A DNA stretch of 64,000 bases from Podarcis cretensis (lineage: Eukaryota), in contig OX638164.1 in NCBI GenBank assembly GCA_951804945.1, positions 7,626,001-7,690,000 on the forward strand, written 5' to 3'. Position 1 is the stretch's first letter. The number at the start of each line of letters is the position of its first letter. Positions 16,700 through 56,811 of the stretch are shown piece by piece. The notes beneath the pieces are model-generated. The model searched no databases. It was given only the letters and a program-made list of their open reading frames with translations, and had not been told where the DNA came from. The translations under genes were made by a program, and so were the position numbers.

Positions 16700-18080
16700 T
16701 GTCTTTTAGCCCGGGAGTGCAGTGCTGAGTCGTCGCAATTTGATATAATATGCTCGGGTACTCATGCCATGTGTTTGCGCGTGACGGACCGGGGCCACCA
16801 CGCCTTGGGTCTGAAGAACCCCAACAGCAAGGGAAATTAGGGGGAGGGCAAACTCCCGGCCAAATTTGGGAGCTGCTCTAGTCCTTTGTGAGCCCCTCCT
16901 CTTTCTCTCCCCCCCCCCGCCGTGTTCTCGACACCCTCGGCTCCCCCCCCCCCCGCTTTCCTCCTCAAATCTGTGCCACTTGTGGCGAGGCGGCCTTCCT
17001 ACGGGGAGGAGGGGTGTGTTACACAGCTGCGTTTCAAACAACCGGCCGCTAGGCTTGGGGAGGGGAAAAGGTGGGGGGCTAAGAGAGAAAGCAGAGAGAA
17101 AGGCAGCTTCGCCCGCCGTTACGTTGCCCTCCTGTGTTTGCAATGGATCTGTGTGACCATCGGGGAGGGAGAGGCGATCCAGCGAGCGGCCACGCCAGCA
17201 TACATTAAAAGGCGCGCCTCCTCCAGCGACCAACCTGCCCCCCTCTCCAAGGTCTTGGATACGGAGGAGGAACAACTGCGAGGGAACTAACGTAGGTAGA
17301 CCGGGGGAGCGAGCGGGGAGGGAGAAGCGGGCGTAGCTCTTCTCCTAGAGGGGAGGGGTCGGCGGCGGCAGGAGGATCCTTGCAACACCCAGCGCGCTCT
17401 CCCTACCCATATCTTCGGCTAGCCCTAGCCTGCTTCTTCCCCCGGCAGCGCAGCGGTGTCGCGCGTCTCCCCTCCGAGCCCTCCTCGAGTGGCGCGGGTA
17501 AGCTTTGGAACGCTGGGGGTGGGGAGCGGGGCGGGGGAGGGGCCCTTTTGGAACGCCGAGGCGCCTTTTGGAACGCCGGGGACGGAATTGTGGCTACTTT
17601 CCGCCGCTTCCCTTTTTGCGCGCGCCGAGCGTTCTCTTAGAGACCCTCCTCGCGGGAAAAGGGGAAATAAAGGGGGTTGGGAACCCCACCCCCGAAACGC
17701 GGCGGCCGTTCCTACCCTCCCCACCCGGGTTTCCGAAAGCTGTAGCAGCTGACTTTCCAGCCCACCCACCTACCCCGCGTCTCCCCTCCATAGCGGCCTG
17801 TTTTGGAGCCCGCGGTGCTTCTCGCCTCCCTCTCCCTTTGCGCCTCGGAGGGCCCTCTCCTCTAATGAGGCGCGTTCTCGGCTCTGCTTTCGGTTCCTCG
17901 CTCCTAGAAGGACCTGGCGGATTGGAGGCGGCTGGGTTGGCTGGTGTCCCTGCGCTTCTTCCTTCTCCTCCAGGCGGTCATGTCCCCCACCTCCTTTTTC
18001 CGCCACCCCCTTATTTCAACTGCGAGGGGCGTGTGGTTTGGAGGGCGCAGATAAGAGCGTCTTTCCCAGTGTAAAGGGGC
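16700..18080 (+). promoter_or_regulatory. CpG island promoter of the downstream gene (CUEDC1 by synteny inference)
   Basis: The only strongly GC- and CpG-rich host segment in the window, with GC boxes and dG/dC strings. In mammals CUEDC1 starts just downstream of VEZF1 on the same strand with a non-coding exon 1 and a very long intron 1 (recalled). Confidence 0.8.
17230..17497 (+). other. Probable non-coding first exon (start approximate)
   Basis: TATA-like cattaaaa at ~17203, strong donor CGG|GTAAGC at 17498, weaker donor AAC|GTAGGT at 17292. Confidence 0.5.
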
Positions 18081-25476: not shown

Positions 25477-25840
25477 GGACGCGGGTGGCGCTGTGGGTAA
25501 AACCTCAGTGCTTAGGACTTGCCGATCGTATGGTCGGCGGTTCGAATCCCCACGGCGGGGTGAGCTCCCGTCTTTCGGTCCCAGCTCCTGCCCACCTAGC
25601 AGTTCGAAAGCACCCCTAAGTGCAAGTAGATAAATAGGTACTGCTTTATAGCGGGAAGGTAAATGGCGTTTCTGTGTGCTGCGCTGGTGCTGGCTCGCCA
25701 GAGCAGCTTCATCACGCTGGCCACGTGACCCGGAAGTGTCTCCGGACAGCGCTGGCCCCTGGCCTCTTAAGTGAGATGGGCGCACAACCCTAGAGTCGGA
25801 CACGACTGGCCCGTACGGGCAGGGGTACCTTTACCTTTTA
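25477..25840 (+). mobile_element. Sauria SINE (subfamily B in this window)
   Basis: ggacgcgggtggcgctgtggg...ggttcgaatccc...gtgcaagtagataaatagg...ggtacctttacctttt. Confidence 0.92.
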
Positions 25841-32010: not shown

Positions 32011-32377
32011 AAGGTAAAGGTAAAAGGTAAAGGTACCCCTGCCCGTATGGGCCAGTCTTGACAGACTATAGGGTTGTGCGCTTATCTCACTCTAGAGGCC
32101 GGGAGCCAGCGCTGTCCGCAGACACTTCCGGGTCACGTGGCCAGCGTGACAAGCTGCATCTGGCGAGCCAGCGCAGCACACGGAATGCCGTTTACCTTCC
32201 CGCTGGTAAGCGGTCCCTATTTATCTACTTGCACCCGGGGGTGCTTTCGAACTGCTAGGTTGGCAGGCGCTGGGACCGAAAGACGGGAGCGCACCCCGCC
32301 GCGGGGATTCGAACTGCCGACCATGCGATCGGCAAGTCCTAGGCGCTGAGGTTTTACCCACAGCGCCACCCGCGTCC
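32011..32377 (-). mobile_element. Sauria SINE (subfamily B) with a duplicated 5' end
   Basis: (AAGGTA)n at 32011; head ends cgcgtcc at 32377; extra cagcaccacccgcgt at 32380-32394; probable TSD tcacata. Confidence 0.9.
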
Positions 32378-33530: not shown

Positions 33531-33901
33531 CCCCCCCCCCCCCATCTCAGGCATTAAAATGCTTTGGGCCACTTCCTGCTTGGTAACGTGCAAACAGAAA
33601 ATAAACGGAACAAAACAAAACTGGTGACTGTTTTGTGAAACCTCATGGTACTTTGCTACATGGTGTAAAAGAACACAGAAAGCTTTTTGGAATGCAGGGA
33701 AGAATGAGTCTTAACGGGGTTGTTGGTGGCAACAGGAGAAAGCAAACAGGGATGCATGAGACAAGCAAAAGAGCAATTCTTTTAAGATTGCCATTCTCAT
33801 TGGGTGCTTAAGAATGTGTGAAGCTGACCAATACTCCCCCTGCCCCCATTGCCTTGCAGATATTAAACCCTGCATTTCTGAATGTTCTGTATACAGTGGT
33901 A

Positions 33902-34249
33902 AGGTAAAGGGACCCCTGACCATTAGGTCCAGTCGTGGCCGACTCTGGGGTTGCGGTGCTCATCTCGCTTTATTGGCCGAGGGAGCCAGCGTACAGCTTC
34001 CGGGTCATGTGGCCAGCATGACTAAGCCGCTTCTGGCGAACCAGAGCAGCGCACGGAAACGCCGTTTACCTTCCCGCTGGAGTGGCACCTATTTATCTAC
34101 TTGTACTTTGACGTGCTTTTGAACTGCTAGGTGGCAGGCACAGGGACCGAGCAACAGGAGCTCACCCCACCGCGGGGATTCGAACCACCACCCTTCCAAT
34201 CGGCAAGTCCTAGGCTCTGTGGTTTAACCCACAGCGCCACCCGCGTCCC
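33902..34249 (-). mobile_element. Sauria SINE (subfamily A) with a 12-bp TSD
   Basis: TSD TATACAGTGGTA at 33890-33901 and 34251-34262. Confidence 0.92.
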
Positions 34250-39795: not shown

Positions 39796-40157
39796 GGGAC
39801 GCAGGTGGCGCTGTGGGTTAAAGCCTCAGCGCCTAGGGCTTGCCGATCGAAAGGTCGGCGGTTCGAATCCCTGCGGTGGGGTGCGCTCCCGCTGCTCGGT
39901 CCCAGCGCCTGCCAACCTAGCAGTTCGAAAGCACCTCCGGGTGCAAGTAGATAAATAGGGACCGCTTACCGGCGGGAAGGTAAACGGCGTTTCCGTGTGC
40001 GGCTCTGGCTCGCCAGAGCAGCGATGTCACGCTGGCCACGTGACCCGGAAGTGTCTCCGGACAGCGCTGGCCCCTGGCCTCTTAAGTGAGATGGGCGCAC
40101 AACCCCAGAGTCTGTCAAGACTGGCCCGTACGGGCAGGGGTACCTTTACCTTTACCT
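39796..40157 (+). mobile_element. Sauria SINE (subfamily B) with a 13-bp TSD
   Basis: TSD TACCACTGTATTT at 39781-39793 and 40158-40170. Confidence 0.93.
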
Positions 40158-40295
40158 TACCACTGTATTTGGGCATCGAGGGTGCCATCTAGGCTTCAGT
40201 ACCAGCCTGCCTGGACACTCTGTCAGCTGACTCTTGAGGGCCAATCCCAGGCCACCAGCCCCTATAAAGCCCTGGCCTCAGAGGATGCTCTTCAG

Positions 40296-46125: not shown

Positions 46126-47308
46126 GTTGATGAACCCCTGATGCTCCAAATCGTTACTTCCCTTCCCACTGAATGGGCCAACTTTGGCAAGGGGTAGGCC
46201 CACCAACCTGTCAATCATCTGATGTCATAATGATAGTAGATGATTGATACTCGTGGAAGGGGGGCAAATGGCGCACATGAGTAGGCGTTCGACTCTTCAC
46301 CTGTTGGACAAGGAGTTCAGTCCTTCTTTGTCCAGATTTGGGTGTGTGAGGGAGTTCTGTGCATGGTACCCCCTCATGCACCCAAACTGAGGAGTATTCA
46401 GCCCCCCCCCCCCATCAGCTAACTGGTTCGGTGTTGGTGTGTGATAATCCTGTCTTATGCCGGTTTTGTGTTAGTGAAGCAGGCTTTGAGTTACCCGCAC
46501 CCCGGTTTCTGTGTTACAAAAGCACTGAGTATTGCCTTCACATTCTCGCCGTACTCCCTTCTTGTAAATCTTATTTCATGTTTGAATTCCCTCAGCTATT
46601 TCAAGAATGTCATCCTACTGAGGTCAGATTACTTTCCCATGCAATGTATAGAGAGAGCAAGCCTGCGAGGCATAGCACTTTTCAATTAAGTCCCTCTACT
46701 TTTCTCAATTAATTTCTTAATTTAGAAGTATAGGAGGCTGGAATTCTAGTATGGAATAGCAACACATCAGTCACAAGATACAAAGGGGGAGGGGAACCCC
46801 CCCACACACACACTTCAGATAGTTTTAAAGGCTGTTCTAGAGAGGGTCAATGCCCCCCAACACATTTTTCTGAAAGCCAGATGTGGTTGTTTGGGTCCTC
46901 GCCTTCGTAGCATTGAAGTATTGCTTTTTTAAAGACATAAATTTGCATTGTGGCTTGAGAGTTGAGCAAATAAGGTGGCAAGACAGATGCTCATCTAGTG
47001 GGGAGCGGGGAAGACGCCCACATTCTCCAGGAACGGAGAGACACAGGTTCAAATCCCTGACTAGTCTTGGACCCTGGACCCCAAGGAGGAGACACTGTTT
47101 TCCCTGTGTGGCAGGTAACCCAGAGCAGCCGTAGGAACAGAGAACCCCTTTCCTTCCCACAGTTGCTCCAGCAAAAGTGCTGCCTGGTGACTATCTGTAG
47201 GAGGCTAGTAAAACCAGGTCATTTTCTAGATCCCCCGATCCTCTTTGTATGCCCATTCTTTCCATTGCTGTGGTTGGTATCAGTTTGTTCATTTGTTCTC
47301 TCAGCTTC

Positions 47309-48381
47309 TGTAGTAATGCTCACCCCCAACCGCTTGCCCCTCCCTTCTCCTGTCTCTGCTCTCCGGCCAGACTAGGACGCCCAGGGCAAGGTTGGCGGGT
47401 GAATTACTTTTTTCAGAACAGAACAAACACGACCCGGTAGGGCTGCCACCACTCCCTATGTCCAGGGGACACCGAACCACAACCCAGGGAGAAGGCTGTG
47501 ACCCATTTAACCTGGCTGTCCCCCTGTTCCACAAGCTGTATCCACAGACTTGCAGGCAGAAGTTCTACGGTAGAGCGTAACCAAGCGTAAGGCTAGGACT
47601 TAGCTATTCCCTCCGGAAAGGCACACAAACTGAAACAGTTTCATTCTAAAAAGGTTTATTTTAAAATAACATAAAAACATGCTAGATTAGCAGGCACTCT
47701 TTTGAACGTTACAGACAAGAAAATAAGAACATTGCATAGTATACCTAGCTATACATACTCACAAGCTCTAACACACAATAGGATAGTTGAAACCTTTAGG
47801 ACTCTGCAAGTTGAAGGCTTTTGAAGATCTCCATTTCAAAAGGCAAAACGACGGCTGATAAGATGGGACATCAGAGCCGGGCCTCTATGCGGATTGCAGA
47901 GCAATGGCAGAGAGCGCCATTTCTCAAACAATTCCCTGATCCTTTATTCACAATTCGCATTCTGCGTCGTAACTTTCAAGCCAATCATAAGACTCAAATT
48001 ATTTTTGAATACACCAATGACCGGCTTGCTGGTCAATCAATTTACTTCTTGACAGCTGGGCCAATTTGGAATCCAAACTTTAAATCAAAGGGTTTCCTCC
48101 CTTCCGTGGAAATTAGCCAGAGACACATTCCCAAGCAATCCAAGGACAGATAGCATCACTGAGGGGGGATGTTTGCACCCTCGAACTCAGGTGTTAGATC
48201 TTTCATTAAATCAAGGCTTCCTTGGTTCCCATAAAGCTTTCAACTAAGGAGACATCTAGTCTAGAGTTTAAAGATACACACTTCTTTCCCAGGGTCCTTG
48301 TGGCTGATGAAACTCCCACAAGGCCTCACTCCTTTTGCTTGACCAAAGAATAATTTTCTAAATAAGACTAACTTTACTACA
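47309..48381 (-). repeat. 3' LTR
   Basis: Direct repeat of 53698-54770; one mismatch found by eye (A47847 vs G54236). Confidence 0.97.
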
Positions 48382-48392
48382 CCCTCCCCTCT
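48382..48392 (-). other. Polypurine tract AGAGGGGAGGG
   Basis: Directly abuts the 3' LTR TG on the - strand. Confidence 0.9.
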
Positions 48393-48563
48393 AAGATGAA
48401 ATTATAGGGTGAAGTCCCATAATTTCATCAAAGAAAATTATTTACAGACTGAGGTAGATCATCCGGTCCAGGGGGCTTTAGCAGCTTTTAAGACATACAT
48501 CACTAGCAGCACCCCCCTAATCCGATTTTTCACAGTTCTTAGGCAATACTCAATAATAACATC

Positions 48564-51500
48564 TCATGGAACAGATTGGTACATCCTAGACAAAGTATCA
48601 GCAACAACGTTACTCTTTCCTGCGATGTGAGTGACTTTAAACTGAAAATCTTGAAGAGCCATACTCCACCTAAGCAATTTCTGGTTGGATGATTTCACCC
48701 TTTCCAACCAACACAGTGGAGAGTGGTCAGTTTGAACCTCAAAGGTGTTACCCCACAGATAAGGACGCAGTTTGGTCAGAGCCCAGACCAAAGCAAAACA
48801 CTCCTTCTCTATGGTTGAATAATTTTGTTCAGAAGTGATCAACTTTTTACTCAAGTAAACCACAGGACGCCAGTTTCCTTTTTCATCTTCTTGGAGCAAA
48901 ACTGCTCCTAGTCCAGTCTGACTGGCATCAGTCTGCACTATAAACGGACGTCTCTGATCTGGGGCCAGCATGACTTGGGAACTCATAAGGGCATGTTTTA
49001 ACAAATCAAAGGCCCTTTGGCACTCCTCGGTCCAATTTACTCTAACTGGCAAAGACTTCTTACAAAGGTTGGTGAGCGGAGCAGCTAAAGTTGCAAAATG
49101 GTTGACGAAGCGCCTATAATAATTCACCAACCCGATAAAAGACTGCACATCCTTCTTCACGATGGGGCGAGGCCATTCTTGAATGCACTGCACCTTGGCC
49201 TCTAAAGTCTTGATGTTTCCTGACCCCACTCTAAATCCTAAGTACACTACTTCCCCTTGGGCAAACTGGCATTTTGATATTTTAACAGTCAGGTTTGCCT
49301 CTTGCAACCGGGCCAAAACTCTCTGCACATGCTTAAGGTGTTCTGGCCACGATTCAGAAAAAATTGCTAGATCATCTAAATAAGCACAGCAAAACTCATT
49401 CAGGTCATGAATCAAGGAGTTGATTAACCGTTGGAAAGCTGCAGGAGCATTTCGTAATCCAAACGGCAGCACTTTAAACTGGTACAAGCCTACATGAGTG
49501 ACAAAAGCAGACTTTTCAGAAGCTTCTGGGGACAGCGGGATTTGCCAATACCCTTTTGTCAGATCCATGACAGTGATGAATCTCGCCCGTCCCAATTTCT
49601 CAATCAAGGTGTCAATCCTAGGTAAGGGAAACACATCAGGGACAGTAACTAGGTTAATTTTTCGATAGTCTATGCAAAAACGAATAGTTCCGTCTGGTTT
49701 TGGAACCAGTACTATGGGAGAAGCCCAAGCACTCTTACTAGGTTCTATAACTCCCAACTCCAACATTTCTTTCAATTCCGTCTCAATGTTCTGTGCATGT
49801 GCCTCACCAACTCGGTATGGACGTGAGGAAATGGGGGGAGTGTCCCCCGTGACAAAATGATGTTGAGCCAAGTGAGTCTTACCAGGCTTGGTGCTAAATG
49901 TGTTGCTATAAGGTTGCAGTGCTTCATAGAGCTCTTTAGCCTGAGTCTCACTTAAAGTCGGCAGCTGCAATACATCAGAAATACTTCCAGCCTGTTTGTA
50001 TTCAGTTAAAAGATCCACAGGTGAAGCAGGCACCTCCTCCTGGCTCCGCGAAATGGCTAGCACAGAGATCTTTTGTTCCACAAACTCTTTCAAAGAATTA
50101 ACATGATACTCGCGAGCAGTGGGGTGCAATTCCTTGCATTTTACAAGGTAACGCACAGGACTCAGCCTCGCTTCCACAACACCAGGACCTTGCCATTTCA
50201 CATCTAACTTGTGGGGGCGAGACGGTCTTAAAATCCATACCTGATCCCCCACCTCAAACTGTTTGCACACAGCTTTGGCATCATGTACTCTTTTTTGATC
50301 TAATCGGGCGTTCTCTAAATTCTCTTTGGCCAGTTGCCAAATGTCTGCCAGAGTTCCTTTTAATTGGGCAAAATACTCACTAACTGAAGGCAGTTTTATC
50401 TCTTCCTCAGAACCTTCCCACTCTTTTCGAAGCATTGAGAGAGGGGTATTCAGAAGCCTTCCAAAAATTAACTGATTGGGTGCAAACCCAAGGCTTCTTT
50501 GATGGGCATCATTATAAGCAGCCACCACCAAAGGCAAATCTTGGTCCCAACTAGTACCATGGGCCAGGGCATACTTGCGCAGCATCTGAACCAAGGTCTT
50601 TTGCACTCTTTCCACCAACCCATTTCCCTGATGCTGGTAAGCAATGGATGTATGGTGGCGAACCTCAGACAAACGCAAGACCTCCTGGGTTACTTTAGCC
50701 ATAAAATTAGTTCCCAAATCGCTCACCAAAACTTTAGGAATTCCTAGGGAACAGAAGGCAGAAATTAAAGCCTTAACCAGACTATTAGCAGAGGTATTAG
50801 TCAAACTTGTGGCATAAACATAACGAGACGCATAATCAATGATCACGCACAGATATTGCTTCCCTGAGCGAGTTTTTGGTAAGGGACCCACTAAATCAAT
50901 TCCCCACTTTTCCAAAACATTTGCTTCTAAGGGGACACTCTGTAACTCATTGGGCAGGTTATCACGGTCATTCCCCACCTTCTGGCAAATTACACAAGAA
51001 CGCACATATGCTTTAGTGGTTTGATACACATCAGGCCAGTAGAAGTAACGAGTCAGTCTCTCTAAGGTCTTTTGTAGTCCCATATGACCCGCCAAGCCGT
51101 CTTCATGGGCTAAGCTAAGAACAGTAGATCGCTTCTTTTCTGGAACCACTAGTTGTAAAACAAAATCTTTATCTTTCACCTTTTTTGGTACAAATTGTCG
51201 ATATAAAAGTCCCTTTTTATACACAAATTGGGCCCTCTTCGTTCCTCGGAGAGGAGTTCCAACCGCCTCCCGACAATCCTGCAAGGAGGGGTCAGCCCTT
51301 TGCTCAGCAGCAAACTCTCCCAGGTCTCCCAGTTCCACAGAACCATTAAGGTCCTTCTTGGCAACCTCATCCAAGACAGGTAACTCTCCCTCCCCTCCAG
51401 GTTTTCCATCCAACCCAGTCTCAAACTCCACCACATCCTTCCCTGCCGGGGAGGGGGTGGGGGGAGTTGCCACAGTTACCGGATTCACATTCAGCTGTTG

Positions 51501-53576
51501 CTGCAGATAGACTTGAAACCCAAGATCATTCCCAACCAAAACGGGGCTTTTGCAGACTTCTGGGTCATGAACAATTACCAAATGGTCCCCACTATAACCT
51601 TTGTATTTAAGGGGAACTATTGCTGTTGGCTGGAAAATTTCCTCCACTCCATAAGGGCTAATCTTTAAAGGTTTAGCCTGCATCTGGCTGGGTAAAACCA
51701 GATCTTTCGACACGCTAGTAATATCAGAACCAGTGTCCCGGTACGAGTCCACAACAGTTTTATTGATCTCGATAGGGGCAGAAAACTCCAAATTTGCCCA
51801 ATTCACATGGGGTGTTTTTACAGAGTTCTTGGTGCATACAGGACCCACGGTCACGGATGTTTCAGGTTTATTCCGAACAGGTGTTGACCCACCCTCCTCC
51901 TTCAGAGCCAAACTTTCCACTGCTCCAGGTGTTGTCGATTTCTCCTCCCAATTTTCCTCCTGCCGCTGTATCATACGGACAGCAGGGGTGGAGGTACGAA
52001 CGGGGGGGTTTTTCCCACTCAACTGGGGACAAACTGCCTTTACGTGCCCCGGTTTTTTGCAAAAGAAACACAGTCCAGAACTCGGGGGCACCTTAGCACG
52101 CTCTCCCCCAGCTGCAGCGGAGTCTTTAGCAGGTGTAGGCAATCCTTTACTGGATTCTTTGATGGGGGGGGCGGACCTTCCCGACGATGCTGTAGATTTA
52201 TACATGTTACTCTGTCCTTTATTGACAAGATGGGTGCGGTTCAGCCAAAAAGATTCAGCAAGGGCGGTGGCTTCTGCCAGCGTCCTGGGCTTTTTATCGG
52301 CAACCAAACTAACAATTTCCGGGGGCAGGGAGCGCATCAATTGTTCAATTAACAGCAGCTGCTTGATCCCTTTCAAATCCTCTACCCCCTCGGCTGCAAG
52401 CCACAGTTCAAAGTTTTGGGCCATTTTGGCAGAGAAGACTGCAATGTTGTCAGTGAGCCCTCCCCTTTCCACTTTCCGAAAAGCTTTTCGATAGTGTTCA
52501 GGATGTAAGCCATGCCGCTGCATGACTAATCTTTTAAAGCTTTCATAGTCATTCATATCATCTGGGGGGAGGTGTCCCATAAGCTCGGACAAGTCACCAC
52601 AAACTAGGGGACGTAACACCGCCATATACAGTTCTGGCGCAACCCCCATGTCCCGGCAAGTCACCTCAAAAAGATTTAGATAACTAAGGGCATCAGTGGG
52701 GGGGTGGTATTTCTGGAACACCTTCCAGTTAAGATTACTTAAAGTCAGTCCTGGAGGGGACCGTTGGTATTGGTCTCCCCCCCTCCTCGGGACAGGTTCA
52801 TACCTTGGTGTAGGGTTAGGAGGCAATTGCCCCTGGGCGTGTAGCTGTTCCGCCGCCGTTGTTGCGTATCCACGCAGGGGTCTCTGGAAGTACTCTTCCT
52901 CCTCCTCCTCTTCTGCCTCGTACCTTCGCACCGGCACACGCACCTCTCGAGCCCTCACCGGCGAGTAGACTCTGCCTGGGCTGATTGGACGCTGTCTCAC
53001 CCTCCGGCGAACGTCCGGCGCTGGCGGCTCTCGACGGCAGTCTCCTACAGTCATCTCCTGTGGCTGCTGCGACAGGTCTTGAAAGTGAGGCGCCATCCGG
53101 CTAGCTCTTGGTCCCATTAAAAGAGACTGGTTCACTCTGGGATACTTATCACGGCAGCGGAATCCACCGTTCACCGGATCTCGCATCCACTCCACATCAT
53201 GTCCTTCTGAGAAATCCATCTCTTTAGGCTCTTTAGGTTCTGCATGGACAGAATAATTCTTTCTAGAACGCGTGGAGTCCACCACGGCCTCTGCCTCCTC
53301 ACGAGGGGATAGGGTTTGGTTAATTGGCGTGCCCTTCCCCCTGTCCACAATGCAGGACTCTCGCTGGCCCCTCCGGACCGTGCTTATTTTACTGGCATCC
53401 GCCAACTCTTCCTCCGATCCTGAGCCATCCGAAAACCAGGAAGCGGATTTCACTCCAGGGCTCACAGTTCTAGGGGGGTCGGTTTCCACCGGGAGGGAGC
53501 TATCTTCTCCCAAATATCCCCATTGATCTACAGTTTGTAATGATTGCTGTTGCGAAGTTAACAAACTGTCCTCCAT
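48564..53576 (-). CDS. Gag-Pol polyprotein, 1670 aa from the first ATG: SCAN-like capsid, CCHC, protease, integrase, RT, RNase H
   Basis: SCAN-like HPEHYRKAFR..W...QLLLIEQLMRSLP...PRTLAEATALAE (52505-52245); CFFCKKPGHVKAVC (52070-52029); DTGS (~51735); HHCC plus IDLVGP/SDLGTNF/GLVER and WQGP (~51110-50180); RT with DLTKGYWQ and YLDD (49382-49371); RNase H TDAS, EKEC, TDH, ADTLSR. Confidence 0.95.
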   Translation of the reverse strand: MEDSLLTSQQQSLQTVDQWGYLGEDSSLPVETDPPRTVSPGVKSASWFSDGSGSEEELADASKISTVRRGQRESCIVDRGKGTPINQTLSPREEAEAVVDSTRSRKNYSVHAEPKEPKEMDFSEGHDVEWMRDPVNGGFRCRDKYPRVNQSLLMGPRASRMAPHFQDLSQQPQEMTVGDCRREPPAPDVRRRVRQRPISPGRVYSPVRAREVRVPVRRYEAEEEEEEEYFQRPLRGYATTAAEQLHAQGQLPPNPTPRYEPVPRRGGDQYQRSPPGLTLSNLNWKVFQKYHPPTDALSYLNLFEVTCRDMGVAPELYMAVLRPLVCGDLSELMGHLPPDDMNDYESFKRLVMQRHGLHPEHYRKAFRKVERGGLTDNIAVFSAKMAQNFELWLAAEGVEDLKGIKQLLLIEQLMRSLPPEIVSLVADKKPRTLAEATALAESFWLNRTHLVNKGQSNMYKSTASSGRSAPPIKESSKGLPTPAKDSAAAGGERAKVPPSSGLCFFCKKPGHVKAVCPQLSGKNPPVRTSTPAVRMIQRQEENWEEKSTTPGAVESLALKEEGGSTPVRNKPETSVTVGPVCTKNSVKTPHVNWANLEFSAPIEINKTVVDSYRDTGSDITSVSKDLVLPSQMQAKPLKISPYGVEEIFQPTAIVPLKYKGYSGDHLVIVHDPEVCKSPVLVGNDLGFQVYLQQQLNVNPVTVATPPTPSPAGKDVVEFETGLDGKPGGEGELPVLDEVAKKDLNGSVELGDLGEFAAEQRADPSLQDCREAVGTPLRGTKRAQFVYKKGLLYRQFVPKKVKDKDFVLQLVVPEKKRSTVLSLAHEDGLAGHMGLQKTLERLTRYFYWPDVYQTTKAYVRSCVICQKVGNDRDNLPNELQSVPLEANVLEKWGIDLVGPLPKTRSGKQYLCVIIDYASRYVYATSLTNTSANSLVKALISAFCSLGIPKVLVSDLGTNFMAKVTQEVLRLSEVRHHTSIAYQHQGNGLVERVQKTLVQMLRKYALAHGTSWDQDLPLVVAAYNDAHQRSLGFAPNQLIFGRLLNTPLSMLRKEWEGSEEEIKLPSVSEYFAQLKGTLADIWQLAKENLENARLDQKRVHDAKAVCKQFEVGDQVWILRPSRPHKLDVKWQGPGVVEARLSPVRYLVKCKELHPTAREYHVNSLKEFVEQKISVLAISRSQEEVPASPVDLLTEYKQAGSISDVLQLPTLSETQAKELYEALQPYSNTFSTKPGKTHLAQHHFVTGDTPPISSRPYRVGEAHAQNIETELKEMLELGVIEPSKSAWASPIVLVPKPDGTIRFCIDYRKINLVTVPDVFPLPRIDTLIEKLGRARFITVMDLTKGYWQIPLSPEASEKSAFVTHVGLYQFKVLPFGLRNAPAAFQRLINSLIHDLNEFCCAYLDDLAIFSESWPEHLKHVQRVLARLQEANLTVKISKCQFAQGEVVYLGFRVGSGNIKTLEAKVQCIQEWPRPIVKKDVQSFIGLVNYYRRFVNHFATLAAPLTNLCKKSLPVRVNWTEECQRAFDLLKHALMSSQVMLAPDQRRPFIVQTDASQTGLGAVLLQEDEKGNWRPVVYLSKKLITSEQNYSTIEKECFALVWALTKLRPYLWGNTFEVQTDHSPLCWLERVKSSNQKLLRWSMALQDFQFKVTHIAGKSNVVADTLSRMYQSVP

Positions 53577-53677
53577 TCTCCTAACTATCACTATCCAAAA
53601 AAAATAAACCACCTGTAACCCACAAAAGATTCGTGCCAAGTTTTAAAAGATCAAAGTGCCTTTCCGTGGGAAGTTCA

Positions 53678-53697
53678 ATCCCACCACGCTGCCAACA
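53678..53697 (-). other. Primer binding site, tRNA-Leu(AAG/TAG)-like, imperfect
   Basis: Minus strand TGTTGGCAGCGTGGTGGGAT directly after the 5' LTR, versus the expected TGGTGGCAGCGGTGGGAT. Confidence 0.75.
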
Positions 53698-54770
53698 TGT
53701 AGTAATGCTCACCCCCAACCGCTTGCCCCTCCCTTCTCCTGTCTCTGCTCTCCGGCCAGACTAGGACGCCCAGGGCAAGGTTGGCGGGTGAATTACTTTT
53801 TTCAGAACAGAACAAACACGACCCGGTAGGGCTGCCACCACTCCCTATGTCCAGGGGACACCGAACCACAACCCAGGGAGAAGGCTGTGACCCATTTAAC
53901 CTGGCTGTCCCCCTGTTCCACAAGCTGTATCCACAGACTTGCAGGCAGAAGTTCTACGGTAGAGCGTAACCAAGCGTAAGGCTAGGACTTAGCTATTCCC
54001 TCCGGAAAGGCACACAAACTGAAACAGTTTCATTCTAAAAAGGTTTATTTTAAAATAACATAAAAACATGCTAGATTAGCAGGCACTCTTTTGAACGTTA
54101 CAGACAAGAAAATAAGAACATTGCATAGTATACCTAGCTATACATACTCACAAGCTCTAACACACAATAGGATAGTTGAAACCTTTAGGACTCTGCAAGT
54201 TGAAGGCTTTTGAAGATCTCCATTTCAAAAGGCAAGACGACGGCTGATAAGATGGGACATCAGAGCCGGGCCTCTATGCGGATTGCAGAGCAATGGCAGA
54301 GAGCGCCATTTCTCAAACAATTCCCTGATCCTTTATTCACAATTCGCATTCTGCGTCGTAACTTTCAAGCCAATCATAAGACTCAAATTATTTTTGAATA
54401 CACCAATGACCGGCTTGCTGGTCAATCAATTTACTTCTTGACAGCTGGGCCAATTTGGAATCCAAACTTTAAATCAAAGGGTTTCCTCCCTTCCGTGGAA
54501 ATTAGCCAGAGACACATTCCCAAGCAATCCAAGGACAGATAGCATCACTGAGGGGGGATGTTTGCACCCTCGAACTCAGGTGTTAGATCTTTCATTAAAT
54601 CAAGGCTTCCTTGGTTCCCATAAAGCTTTCAACTAAGGAGACATCTAGTCTAGAGTTTAAAGATACACACTTCTTTCCCAGGGTCCTTGTGGCTGATGAA
54701 ACTCCCACAAGGCCTCACTCCTTTTGCTTGACCAAAGAATAATTTTCTAAATAAGACTAACTTTACTACA
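53698..54770 (-). repeat. 5' LTR (promoter copy)
   Basis: Three CCAAT boxes (~54371, 54403, 54450), TATA-like AATAAAGG at ~54330 and poly(A) signal AATAAA at 54049-54044 on the - strand, consistent with U3-R-U5. Confidence 0.95.
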
Positions 54771-55599
54771 GCTTCTTTCCCCCATTTTGAGGAATACAGA
54801 CAAACTCTACAATTTGCCATTGGTTCTGCATCCCCTGATGGAGCTTTTACTCTGCTGTGGAGTCTTGGAGGATCAGTTGTTGTTGGAAAAGTATGTGTGT
54901 GCCTGGTTGTCCCCAGAGGGCTTGCCCATTTCATTTTCTCCTGATTGCTTTGCGTCCCTGCCCCCCGACAACTAGCTTAGTCTCTGCAGCTTAATATATG
55001 GCTGAACGGCATTAGCAAGGGATCACTCAGGTGCTTTTATTTTATCAGAGTTAGAGGCCAGCGCTCTCCTCTTCCTTCCCCATGTTTTGATGGCACGGCA
55101 GCAATGCTCTGAACTGGCACCGGATAGCCAGGAGCTGCCATTTTAATTTCCCACAATGCCCTAGAGCGATAGTCCTTCAGTTGCATTGTGGGTAATTTAA
55201 ATGGTGGCTCTCAGACTCAAGACTGTTTTGAAATGGAGGCAGAGAGGCTAAGCAGATGTTGGTTTGATATGCTGCCACCAGGACCTTGTAAGCAGGGTCT
55301 GGCCTCTAATGACACCCTCAGTGTGGTGAGCAAGAATTTGGGCCTCTGCTTGTGACATACATATATGGTTTTGCCCTTCTCTGCTTTAACCTCACTGAAA
55401 GTGAGGTCACTCAGAGAGCTTCGTGGGCAGGTCTTCTACCTTAGAATCATAGAATTGTAGAGTTGGAAGGAACTCCAAGGGCCATCTATTCCAACCTCCT
55501 GCAACCTTCTGTGGTTTTGTAGGTGAACGCAAAACTACTTCAGCAAGTCATTAAACAGCGTCTTACCCTTTCCGGTCTTCTGTCATTTAGCAGCACTTC

Positions 55600-56447: not shown

Positions 56448-56811
56448 AAAGGTAAAGGTAAAGGTACCCCTGCCCATACGGGCCAGTCTTGACAGACTCT
56501 GGGGTTGTGCGCCCATCTCACTTAAGAGGCCAGGGGCCAGCGCTGTCCGGAGACACTTCCGGGTCACGTGGCCAGCGTGACATCGCTGCTCTGGCGAGCC
56601 AGAGCCGCACACGGAAACGCCGTTTACCTTCCCGCTGGTAAGCGGTCCCTATTTATCTACTTGCACCCGGAGGTGCTTTCGAACTGCTAGGTTGGCAGGC
56701 ACTGGGACTGAGCAGCGGGAGCGCACCCCGCCACAGGGATTCGAACCGCCGACCTTTCGATCGGCAAGTCCTAGGCGCTGAGGCTTTAACCCACAGTGCC
56801 ACCTGCGTCCC
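56448..56811 (-). mobile_element. Sauria SINE (subfamily B) with a 13-bp TSD
   Basis: TSD TCTTTTTAGTGTA at 56435-56447 and 56812-56824; nearly identical to 39796-40157. Confidence 0.93.

Follow-up and report, generated by a model that had tools for sequence, protein, structure and literature searches.

The segment at positions 52245–52505 of the window (the whole 64,000-nt stretch of Podarcis cretensis DNA analysed here) is very likely part of a capsid (CA), namely its C-terminal lobe; the capsid belongs to a Gmr1-like LTR retrotransposon of this lizard genome that is autonomous and inserted recently. Its resemblance to SCAN is expected, because SCAN is the usual C-lobe of Gmr1-like capsids, a fold that land vertebrates borrowed long ago for use in zinc-finger proteins.

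The LTR pair, target-site duplication, single ORF and domain order delimit a full-length element of the Ty3/gypsy group (Metaviridae), 7,462 nt long, at 47309–54770 on the minus strand, on which all its internal features also lie. The 5′ LTR (53698–54770, 1,073 nt) carries an 8-nt terminal inverted repeat, TGTAGTAA...TTACTACA, and AATAAA at its positions 434 and 722; the 3′ LTR (47309–48381, 1,073 nt) matches it at 1072 of 1073 positions, the single mismatch being 47847 versus 54236. Both have TG...CA ends, and the insertion is flanked by the 5-nt duplication GCTTC at 47304–47308 (left copy) and 54771–54775 (right copy). A putative primer-binding site (PBS; 53677–53694), recognised solely from its position and TGG start, begins 3 nt inward of the 5′ LTR boundary and may loosely resemble the 3′ end of a tRNA-Leu; a polypurine tract of 11 purines (48382–48392) adjoins the 3′ LTR.

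Counted from its first ATG, a single gag-pol ORF (48564–53576, within a stop-free frame of 48564–53642) encodes 1,670 aa without frameshift or stop. It opens with a Gag N-terminal region of ~280 aa (52731–53576), whose R/P/E/S-rich composition suggests that it is probably disordered; no Pfam match above the cut-off was found there. The capsid follows, with an N-lobe at ~52503–52730, similar in modelled fold to the C-lobes of retroviral, Arc and PEG10 capsids, and a C-lobe at 52236–52502, a SCAN-family domain of five helices modelled in the open SCAN protomer conformation. The nucleocapsid is represented by a CCHC zinc knuckle (52023–52073) with an exact C-x2-C-x4-H-x4-C pattern and a Pfam E-value of 0.059, below the cut-off. 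An aspartic protease region (51507–51809, approximate bounds) was assigned from its position and a DTG active-site motif and had no Pfam match. The integrase (50163–51146, C-terminal bound approximate) contains an HHCC finger (PF17921, E 3.2e-19), a D-D(35)-E core with a D–E spacing of 35 (PF00665, E 3.5e-14) and a C-terminal GP motif. It is followed by a Ty3/gypsy-type reverse transcriptase core with YLDD (RT; 49227–49706; PF00078, E 1.1e-34) and an RNase H in which the four acidic catalytic positions are present (48645–49034; PF17917, E 2.6e-40; PF17919, E 1.8e-37). The full set of catalytic motifs is present across the ORF, no env-sized ORF was found downstream of it (the longest same-strand stop-free stretch past the stop is 85 aa), and no second copy or solo LTR was found elsewhere in the 64-kb window. 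The earlier note had described the retroelement as apparently intact and the copy as young; the stop-free ORF, the LTRs that differ at one base, the target duplication and the catalytic motifs bear this out.

Around the element, Pfam searches detected no host gene in the 34 other ORFs of at least 120 aa, one of which gave three weak matches below the cut-off, nor in 145 ORFs of 75–119 aa, although such scans would miss short exons; no tRNA gene was found in the window. Outside the window, Podarcis gene models named CENP-U are fused to a Gag-protease related to that of the element. A literature search on CENP-U returned no mention of ‘CENP-U’ among the matches listed.

The minus-strand translation of 52245–52505 comprises 87 aa and contains all the motifs that had been quoted as mirroring the SCAN pattern. 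A Pfam search identified the SCAN domain (PF02023, E 2.7e-11) with a score of 43.6 bits, above the curated gathering cut-off of 27, and aligned residues 2–86 to model positions 1–83 of 90. Against a profile of 47 named reptile host SCAN domains the segment scored 32.2 bits, whereas the best of its shuffles reached 7.1 (2,000 shuffles, of which 1,835 returned scores), and among the window’s 1,763 six-frame ORFs only gag-pol scored with this profile (E 2.8e-7; next E 0.43). Comparison of the 192-aa capsid region with PDB sequences returned two chains at E≤1, both SCAN (2fi2, E 0.0017; 3lhr, E 0.056), and in a search with a profile of the capsid family the five top-ranking entries were solved SCAN domains (E 1.8e-16 to 1.1e-6). 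The capsid domain had originally been placed at 52245–52505, which holds for its SCAN part and falls short of the whole capsid; given the N-lobe at ~52503–52730, the unit is of the two-lobed ‘extended SCAN’ (ESCAN) type.

Within the single ORF, the Pfam order is SCAN–CCHC–IN–RT–RH, with the integrase (IN; residues 833–1003) upstream of the RT (1313–1472). As PR–IN–RT–RH is the domain order of copia, a Ty1/copia element might be considered, and the weak Foldseek E-values could likewise suggest that the SCAN likeness is a chance helical similarity. Either possibility is negligible: the RT belongs to PF00078 and is accompanied by a Ty3-type RNase H and integrase finger, the copia RT family is absent from the 12 Pfam matches, and the best PDB sequence matches of the RT are to 4ol8 (E 1.4e-98) and the Ty3-G Gag-Pol structure 7q5b (E 2.1e-98), compared with about 1e-7 for HIV RT. 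The chance reading is likewise refuted by the margin of the segment’s score over its shuffles and by the solved SCAN domains that head the family-profile search.

A Ty3-type RT combined with an integrase before the RT identifies the element as Gmr1-like, as the earlier note had implied, and the SCAN C-lobe behind an N-lobe agrees with this; the assignment draws on the order of the domains and the types of RT and capsid, not on a phylogeny of RTs that includes Gmr1 itself, the type element. Integrase before RT also occurred in 10 of 10 capsid relatives carrying both enzymes (154 proteins examined), and PMC8220671 describes it as the defining order of Gmr1 among gypsy elements. SCAN is present in more than 50% of frog Gmr elements (PMC4131045), and full-length Gmr1 elements are already known from squamates (PMC3670739). 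Retroelement-type capsid domains numbered 85 among the homologue matches. Among named proteins, the closest are Podarcis models, broken or partial, with capsids 82–84% identical, and the nearest complete relative found (P0012) shares 68% identity in the RT and 42% in CA; a search with the full polyprotein recovered a single relative. We found no description of this lacertid family in the literature, although the supplements of bioRxiv 2025.03.03.638093 (figs S1A-B) and PMC3670739 (table S2, file S2) may list copies from lacertids or other squamates. Searches for intact Podarcis Gypsy LTR elements returned matches concerning a gecko genome only, and no paper was found that joined Gmr1-like elements, virus-like particles and SCAN.

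The AlphaFold models have a pLDDT of 92.8 (CA) and 91.3 (C-lobe). In agreement with the fold anticipated earlier, the C-lobe model lies nearest to solved SCAN protomers, namely PEG3 (4bhx; Z 9.8, rmsd 3.2 Å, 92 aa) and Zfp206 (4e6s; Z 8.8, rmsd 2.3 Å, 83 aa), with the next match at Z 5.6; values near 9–10 are modest for helical domains. Foldseek returned no match at E≤0.001, its best being SCAN chains at E 0.08–0.2. Closed retroviral CA-CTDs gave no more than partial matches to the C-lobe model (MLV, Z 4.8 over 59 aa), a result that does not exclude a relationship between the two, and the N-lobe model superposed on the RSV CA-CTD (Z 8.8, rmsd 2.9 Å over 73 aa). Structure and sequence searches turned up no solved Gmr1 capsid. 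The open conformation of the C-lobe may reflect AlphaFold’s recall of solved SCAN dimers; from the model we infer that the lobe could dimerise in the intertwined SCAN manner and would be structurally able to pair with host SCAN.

Host SCAN domains are considerably more similar to one another than to the element. The C-lobe shares a median identity of 31% (maximum 35%) with host SCAN, compared with 66% among host domains, and the N-lobe 23%. Lys41 occurs in 154 of 160 host SCAN domains and in none of the 85 retroelement domains, the element having Leu. The alignments and trees omit P0017 and P0109. A quick tree of 158 rows and a careful tree of 35 rows both place the element within the retroelement capsids, apart from the host ESCAN-zinc-finger domains. 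A single clade of the element lineage and the host was rejected on the 35-row tree, for groups chosen after the first tree (p-AU 1.7e-11), and the retroelement-like rows P0057, P0115 and P0142 are sister to the host clade (99/97). Identity of ~31%, the missing Lys41 and the rejected clade rule out a position close to the SCAN donor. Judged from these sequence comparisons, the element capsid is only distantly related to host SCAN/ESCAN and is not the donor lineage; we interpret the likeness as common descent, with host SCAN/ESCAN captured once from another Gmr1-like lineage.

It is highly improbable that the SCAN-like region is part of a domesticated ESCAN/ZSCAN-like host gene and not of a mobile element. 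The CENP-U-named Podarcis models with related Gag-protease sequences indicate that this lineage can become annotated as host genes; near-identical LTRs with a target duplication on both sides and a full pol with catalytic residues argue against such a reading here, as does a SCAN score of 39–44 bits, compared with 228–253 for two-domain host ESCAN proteins (>110 per domain). The ORF past SCAN continues into CCHC–PR–IN–RT–RH and not into C2H2 or KRAB, and no intact C2H2 zinc-finger array pattern was found in six frames of the whole window. A host SCAN/ESCAN zinc-finger gene is rejected on this missing array, the placement outside the host SCAN clade and the absence of Lys41.

A further proposal is that lizard ESCAN/SCAN zinc-finger proteins co-assemble with the element capsid in germ cells, acting as dominant-negative or DNA-targeting restriction factors. 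The host-binding hypothesis is that of Emerson and Thomas 2011, as cited in a 2015 review (PMC4592553), which regards evidence for host SCAN binding to such capsids as lacking. Modelled with a Podarcis muralis host SCAN (P0231, residues 150–246), the C-lobe gave an ipSAE of 0.61 (best of three controls, 0.00), a pass that the SCAN dimers already solved may explain. In the calibration of the tool, made without close relatives of a partner, this mark was reached by 51/78 solved and 2/108 mismatched microbial pairs and by 39/65 solved and 2/126 unrelated eukaryotic pairs. At least 97% of contacts agreed between runs, and partner pLDDT was at least 79. Of the 30 interface positions of the element, 20 contact their host counterparts, which are interface positions too, the pattern of a pseudo-symmetric SCAN dimer. 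Potential partners are abundant in reptiles, with 1,760 matches at E≤1e-20 (reptile-named in 120/120 of the matches listed), and bioRxiv 2025.03.03.638093 reports expansion of SCAN-ZF genes and depletion of Gmr1-like elements in squamates. However, identity is 11/30 inside the interface and 18/56 outside it, so the interface is not enriched; the element has Leu at the nearly invariant host Lys41, SCAN pairing is selective even between host proteins, chromatin is where human SCAN-ZFs act, a joint clade is rejected, and the host repertoire evidently did not keep the element from inserting recently. We consider co-assembly unlikely. The intact young copy, put forward earlier as a test of host ZSCAN binding, is a legitimate substrate but not an ideal one, given 31% identity, no Lys41 and the rejected shared clade; because its lineage is far from the host-captured one, a negative binding result would say little about the ancestral interaction.

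For the Gmr1-like element itself, a life cycle can be proposed by analogy with Ty3/gypsy. RNA transcribed from the 5′ LTR would yield one Gag-PR-IN-RT-RH polyprotein, a scheme that does not account for the excess of Gag over Pol. Gag would assemble into an intracellular particle with a shell of two-lobed CA, in which the SCAN-type C-lobe could provide the dimer contact and the CCHC knuckle would package element RNA. The protease would then mature the particle, a tRNA at the PBS and the polypurine tract would supply the primers for RT, and integrase would insert the copy, generating the 5-nt duplication; the element would thus keep the SCAN fold for its own capsid. An element can be dead despite intact motifs, and the hint of mobility is indirect, one mismatch in 1,073 nt between the LTRs.

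The origin of SCAN from a Gmr1-like capsid is already established, so that the observation itself adds little. An unmutated natural capsid and an ESCAN-rich lizard host nevertheless offer matched reagents for two linked questions, whether the SCAN dimer with its domain swap is used by a real Gmr1 capsid, and whether such capsids are bound by SCAN/ESCAN proteins of the host. The interest of this element is limited by the comparable reagents that fish, frog and turtle genomes already provide. The copy suggests that at least one Gmr1-like family was inserting within roughly the last million years, tempering the view of Gmr1-like depletion in reptile genomes given in bioRxiv 2025.03.03.638093. A broader synthesis, which we hold to be speculative and quite improbable, would have a Gmr1-like family mobile today in lacertids, where ESCAN/SCAN zinc-finger genes have expanded most. 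The capsid would assemble via an intertwined SCAN dimer, so that the retrotransposon shell would have had domain swapping ancestrally; host ESCAN proteins would restrict the element by swapping into this dimer; its divergence at position 41 and other interface positions would represent escape; and a CENP-U-Gag-protease isoform in Podarcis would mark a second capture of the lineage.

Compared with known systems, the element shares with the Gmr1-like clade, as defined in PMC8220671 and bioRxiv 2025.03.03.638093, a gypsy-type RT, integrase upstream of RT, a SCAN-bearing capsid, LTRs and no env, and differs in its lacertid sub-lineage, ~280-aa R/P/E-rich Gag N-terminus and 1.07-kb LTRs. In the two-lobed capsids of Ty3, Arc, PEG10 and retroviruses, it is the C-lobe fold that superposes on the element’s N-lobe (Z: RSV 8.8, copia 8.1, PEG10 7.9, dArc2 7.7), and their CTD is closed, whereas the prediction for the element’s C-lobe is an open, SCAN-type conformation. 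Host SCAN (PF02023; structures of ZNF24, MZF1, ZNF174, PEG3 and Zfp206) has the same five-helix fold and core motif as the element C-lobe, and the N-lobe of reptile ESCAN-zinc-finger proteins is homologous to the element’s (matches P0018, P0027 and P0045). In contrast, host SCAN is followed by KRAB or C2H2 fingers, whereas the element’s SCAN is embedded in Gag-Pol, lacks the host-specific Gly-Pro at 18–19, both cysteines and the Trp near 65, and carries a one-residue insertion after the WL motif.

The minus-strand translation of 52245–52505 contains the motifs on which the earlier note had based its claim of a SCAN-like capsid, and the Pfam SCAN model (PF02023) matches it over positions 1–83 of 90 with E = 2.7e-11 and 43.6 bits, above the cut-off of 27 bits. 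A profile built on reptile host SCAN domains (47 named ones) gave this segment 32.2 bits, the top of 2,000 shuffles reaching 7.1 bits, and only 1 of the 1,763 ORFs of the window scored significantly. A PDB sequence search with the 192-aa capsid region gave two matches at E ≤ 1, both SCAN domains, and five solved SCAN domains head the ranking of a 77-relative capsid profile (E 1.8e-16 to 1.1e-6). Judged from these sequence comparisons, the likeness to SCAN is one of true homology.

The capsid comprises an N-lobe (~52503–52730) and a SCAN-family C-lobe (52236–52502), and AlphaFold models of the whole capsid and of the C-lobe alone were confident (pLDDT 92.8 and 91.3). The C-lobe model lies nearest to SCAN protomers (4bhx: Z 9.8, rmsd 3.2 Å, 92 aa; 4e6s: Z 8.8, 2.3 Å, 83 aa), far above the best other structure (Z 5.6), whereas closed retroviral CTDs align only over the last helices (MLV, Z 4.8). 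Foldseek gave no match at E ≤ 0.001; SCAN chains nonetheless ranked at the top. The N-lobe model resembles capsid C-lobe folds (RSV, Z 8.8; copia, 8.1; PEG10, 7.9; dArc2, 7.7). The models suggest that the capsid would dimerise SCAN-style from an open C-lobe conformation, which we can only infer because the predictor has seen SCAN dimers.

The surrounding minus-strand element is, in all probability, a young and apparently complete Gmr1-like retrotransposon. Its description as apparently intact is borne out by a stop-free ORF at 48564–53642 (1,692 codons between stops; translation from the first ATG, at 53576, gives 1,670 aa), by LTRs of 1,073 nt each (47309–48381 and 53698–54770) differing at one position, by a GCTTC duplication on both sides and by the DTG, HHCC, D-D(35)-E, YLDD and RNase H acidic motifs. 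The LTR termini form an 8-nt inverted repeat. A PBS-like sequence begins 3 nt inward from the 5' LTR, and a tract of 11 purines adjoins the 3' LTR; no env-sized ORF was found downstream of gag-pol. With substitution rates assumed to lie between 5e-9 and 1e-9 per site per year, the single LTR mismatch dates insertion to ~0.1–0.5 My (upper 95% bound 0.5–2.6 My). The nearest named relatives are Podarcis proteins (82% identical in the capsid), which points to a lacertid lizard as the probable host. The element is the sole copy within the 64-kb window, and none of the 34 + 145 other ORFs there was recognisable as a host gene.

Elsewhere in the window, a CpG island at 17001–18000 (GC 0.64, CpG o/e 0.8), ~29 kb from the element, is possibly a promoter, with no gene identified at the island. 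A 363-nt SINE-like repeat occurs at 39796–40158 and 56449–56811 in opposite orientation (98% identical), with older copies at 25483, 28353, 32014–32377, 33901–34248 and 37003, and is a second recently active repeat family; we take these dispersed repeats to resemble squamate SINEs.

The capsid homolog search also recovered host-type proteins with full ESCAN (N-lobe plus SCAN) and C2H2 arrays, one of which has 1,760 relatives (120 of 120 among the matches listed from reptiles). Compared with 160 host domains, the element's SCAN has a median identity of 31% and its N-lobe one of 23%, against 66% between host domains. When retroelement capsids are ranked by likeness to the host, the element is 8th of 86 for SCAN and 76th of 84 for the N-lobe. 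Lys41, present in 154 of 160 host domains and in 0 of 85 retroelement domains, is Leu in the element. Trees were built quickly from 158 rows and carefully from 35 rows chosen from these plus matches of the host-ESCAN-relative search; both place the element away from the host ESCANs. These group in a single clade (98/95) whose sister is a set of three retroelement-like rows (99/97). Constraining the element lineage and host together was rejected (p-AU 1.7e-11, with groups defined once the first tree was known, and with long branches). The element is a cousin of the SCAN donor rather than its descendant.

The sister capsids P0057, P0115 and P0142 (also P0119 and P0125) are better proxies for the donor than the element; P0057 averages 43% identity to host N-lobes. 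Two tandem ESCAN domains occur in each of five reptile ESCAN-zinc-finger models (P0018, P0021, P0027, P0029, P0045), either genuine tandem capsid domains or neighbouring genes fused. P0036, a retroelement-type capsid joined to three C2H2 fingers that groups within retrotransposon capsids, outside the host clade, is possibly an independent capsid–zinc-finger fusion or a gene-model chimera.

Two models encoded outside the window, P0005 (Podarcis raffonei, 'centromere protein U isoform X2') and P0006 (P. muralis, 'Centromere protein U'), join ~104 CENP-U-like residues to ~690 aa of Gag-CA/SCAN-CCHC-protease of the element lineage, 51–58% identical to the window element. They are candidates for a second capture, or else chimeric annotations produced by an insertion within an intron. 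The CENP-U-like part matches human CENP-U (9fjj) weakly (E 0.13) and shares with it a PLHSTA motif, presumably a PLK1 docking site. Both species have an open frame, and the two models share identities of 103/104 in the CENP-U part, 158/181 in disordered Gag, 171/180 in CA and 97/100 in PR; disordered Gag differs from CA plus PR (Fisher p 0.001, with CpG decay a possible confounder). P0002, P0005, P0006 and P0007 have related post-protease tails that are neither integrase nor RT, which suggests that Podarcis has a family of non-autonomous Gag-PR derivatives; P0007 is labelled CENP-U yet lacks any CENP-U part.

For one pair, predicted with alignments unused, the element C-lobe and the SCAN of P0231, a P. 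muralis host protein, scored 0.61 (ipSAE) against 0.00 for the best of three controls, with at least 97% of contacts agreeing between runs and partner pLDDT at least 79. The mark for this score was reached by 51/78 solved and 2/108 mismatched pairs in a microbial benchmark, and by 39/65 solved and 2/126 unrelated pairs in a eukaryotic one. The predicted interface is pseudo-symmetric at 20/30 positions, and identity there (11/30) is no higher than elsewhere (18/56). Because SCAN dimers are already solved, the pass shows predicted structural compatibility rather than a demonstration of binding, and SCAN pairing is selective even among host proteins (10.1101/2025.03.03.638093). A joint reading in which domain swapping is ancestral to the capsid, ESCAN proteins are in live conflict with the element and CENP-U represents a second capture is improbable.

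The binding test proposed in the earlier note is a hypothesis already dating from 2011: Emerson and Thomas derived SCAN, with its longer ESCAN form, from a Gmr1 capsid and speculated that SCAN steers zinc-finger proteins to capsids (via PMC4592553, PMC8321522, PMC3406341). We found no experiment on it in the literature covered, which includes few subscription journals. A 2025 preprint (10.1101/2025.03.03.638093) that surveyed 68 genomes reports single host capture of SCAN, host-specific Lys41, SCAN-ZF expansion in squamates and a chromatin role for human SCAN-ZFs; it describes Gmr1-like elements as abundant in fish and turtles, with depletion in mammals and the remaining reptiles. Its methods give SCAN association limits of <500 and 600–1100 'bp'; these would miss the element if read literally and fit it if read as codons. 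The element's SCAN lies ~1.1 kb (364 codons; 52236 to 51146) from integrase and ~2.5 kb (844 codons; 52236 to 49706) from RT. The capsid HMMs of PMC10516033 missed SCAN domains, as that paper itself states. SCAN occurs in more than half of frog Gmr elements (PMC4131045), and full-length Gmr1 elements are known from tuatara, squamates, turtles and crocodiles (PMC3670739).

The element's domains run from a two-lobed capsid (N-lobe, then SCAN) through CCHC, protease and integrase to RT and RNase H; integrase precedes RT despite an RT-RNase H nearest to Ty3 in the PDB sequence search (E ~1e-98; HIV RT ~1e-7). The same order occurs in all ten relatives with both domains among 154 capsid relatives examined, and Ty3/gypsy-type RT with integrase before RT is the defining combination of Gmr1 elements (PMC8220671). 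The SCAN likeness of the element capsid is an expected property of this family.
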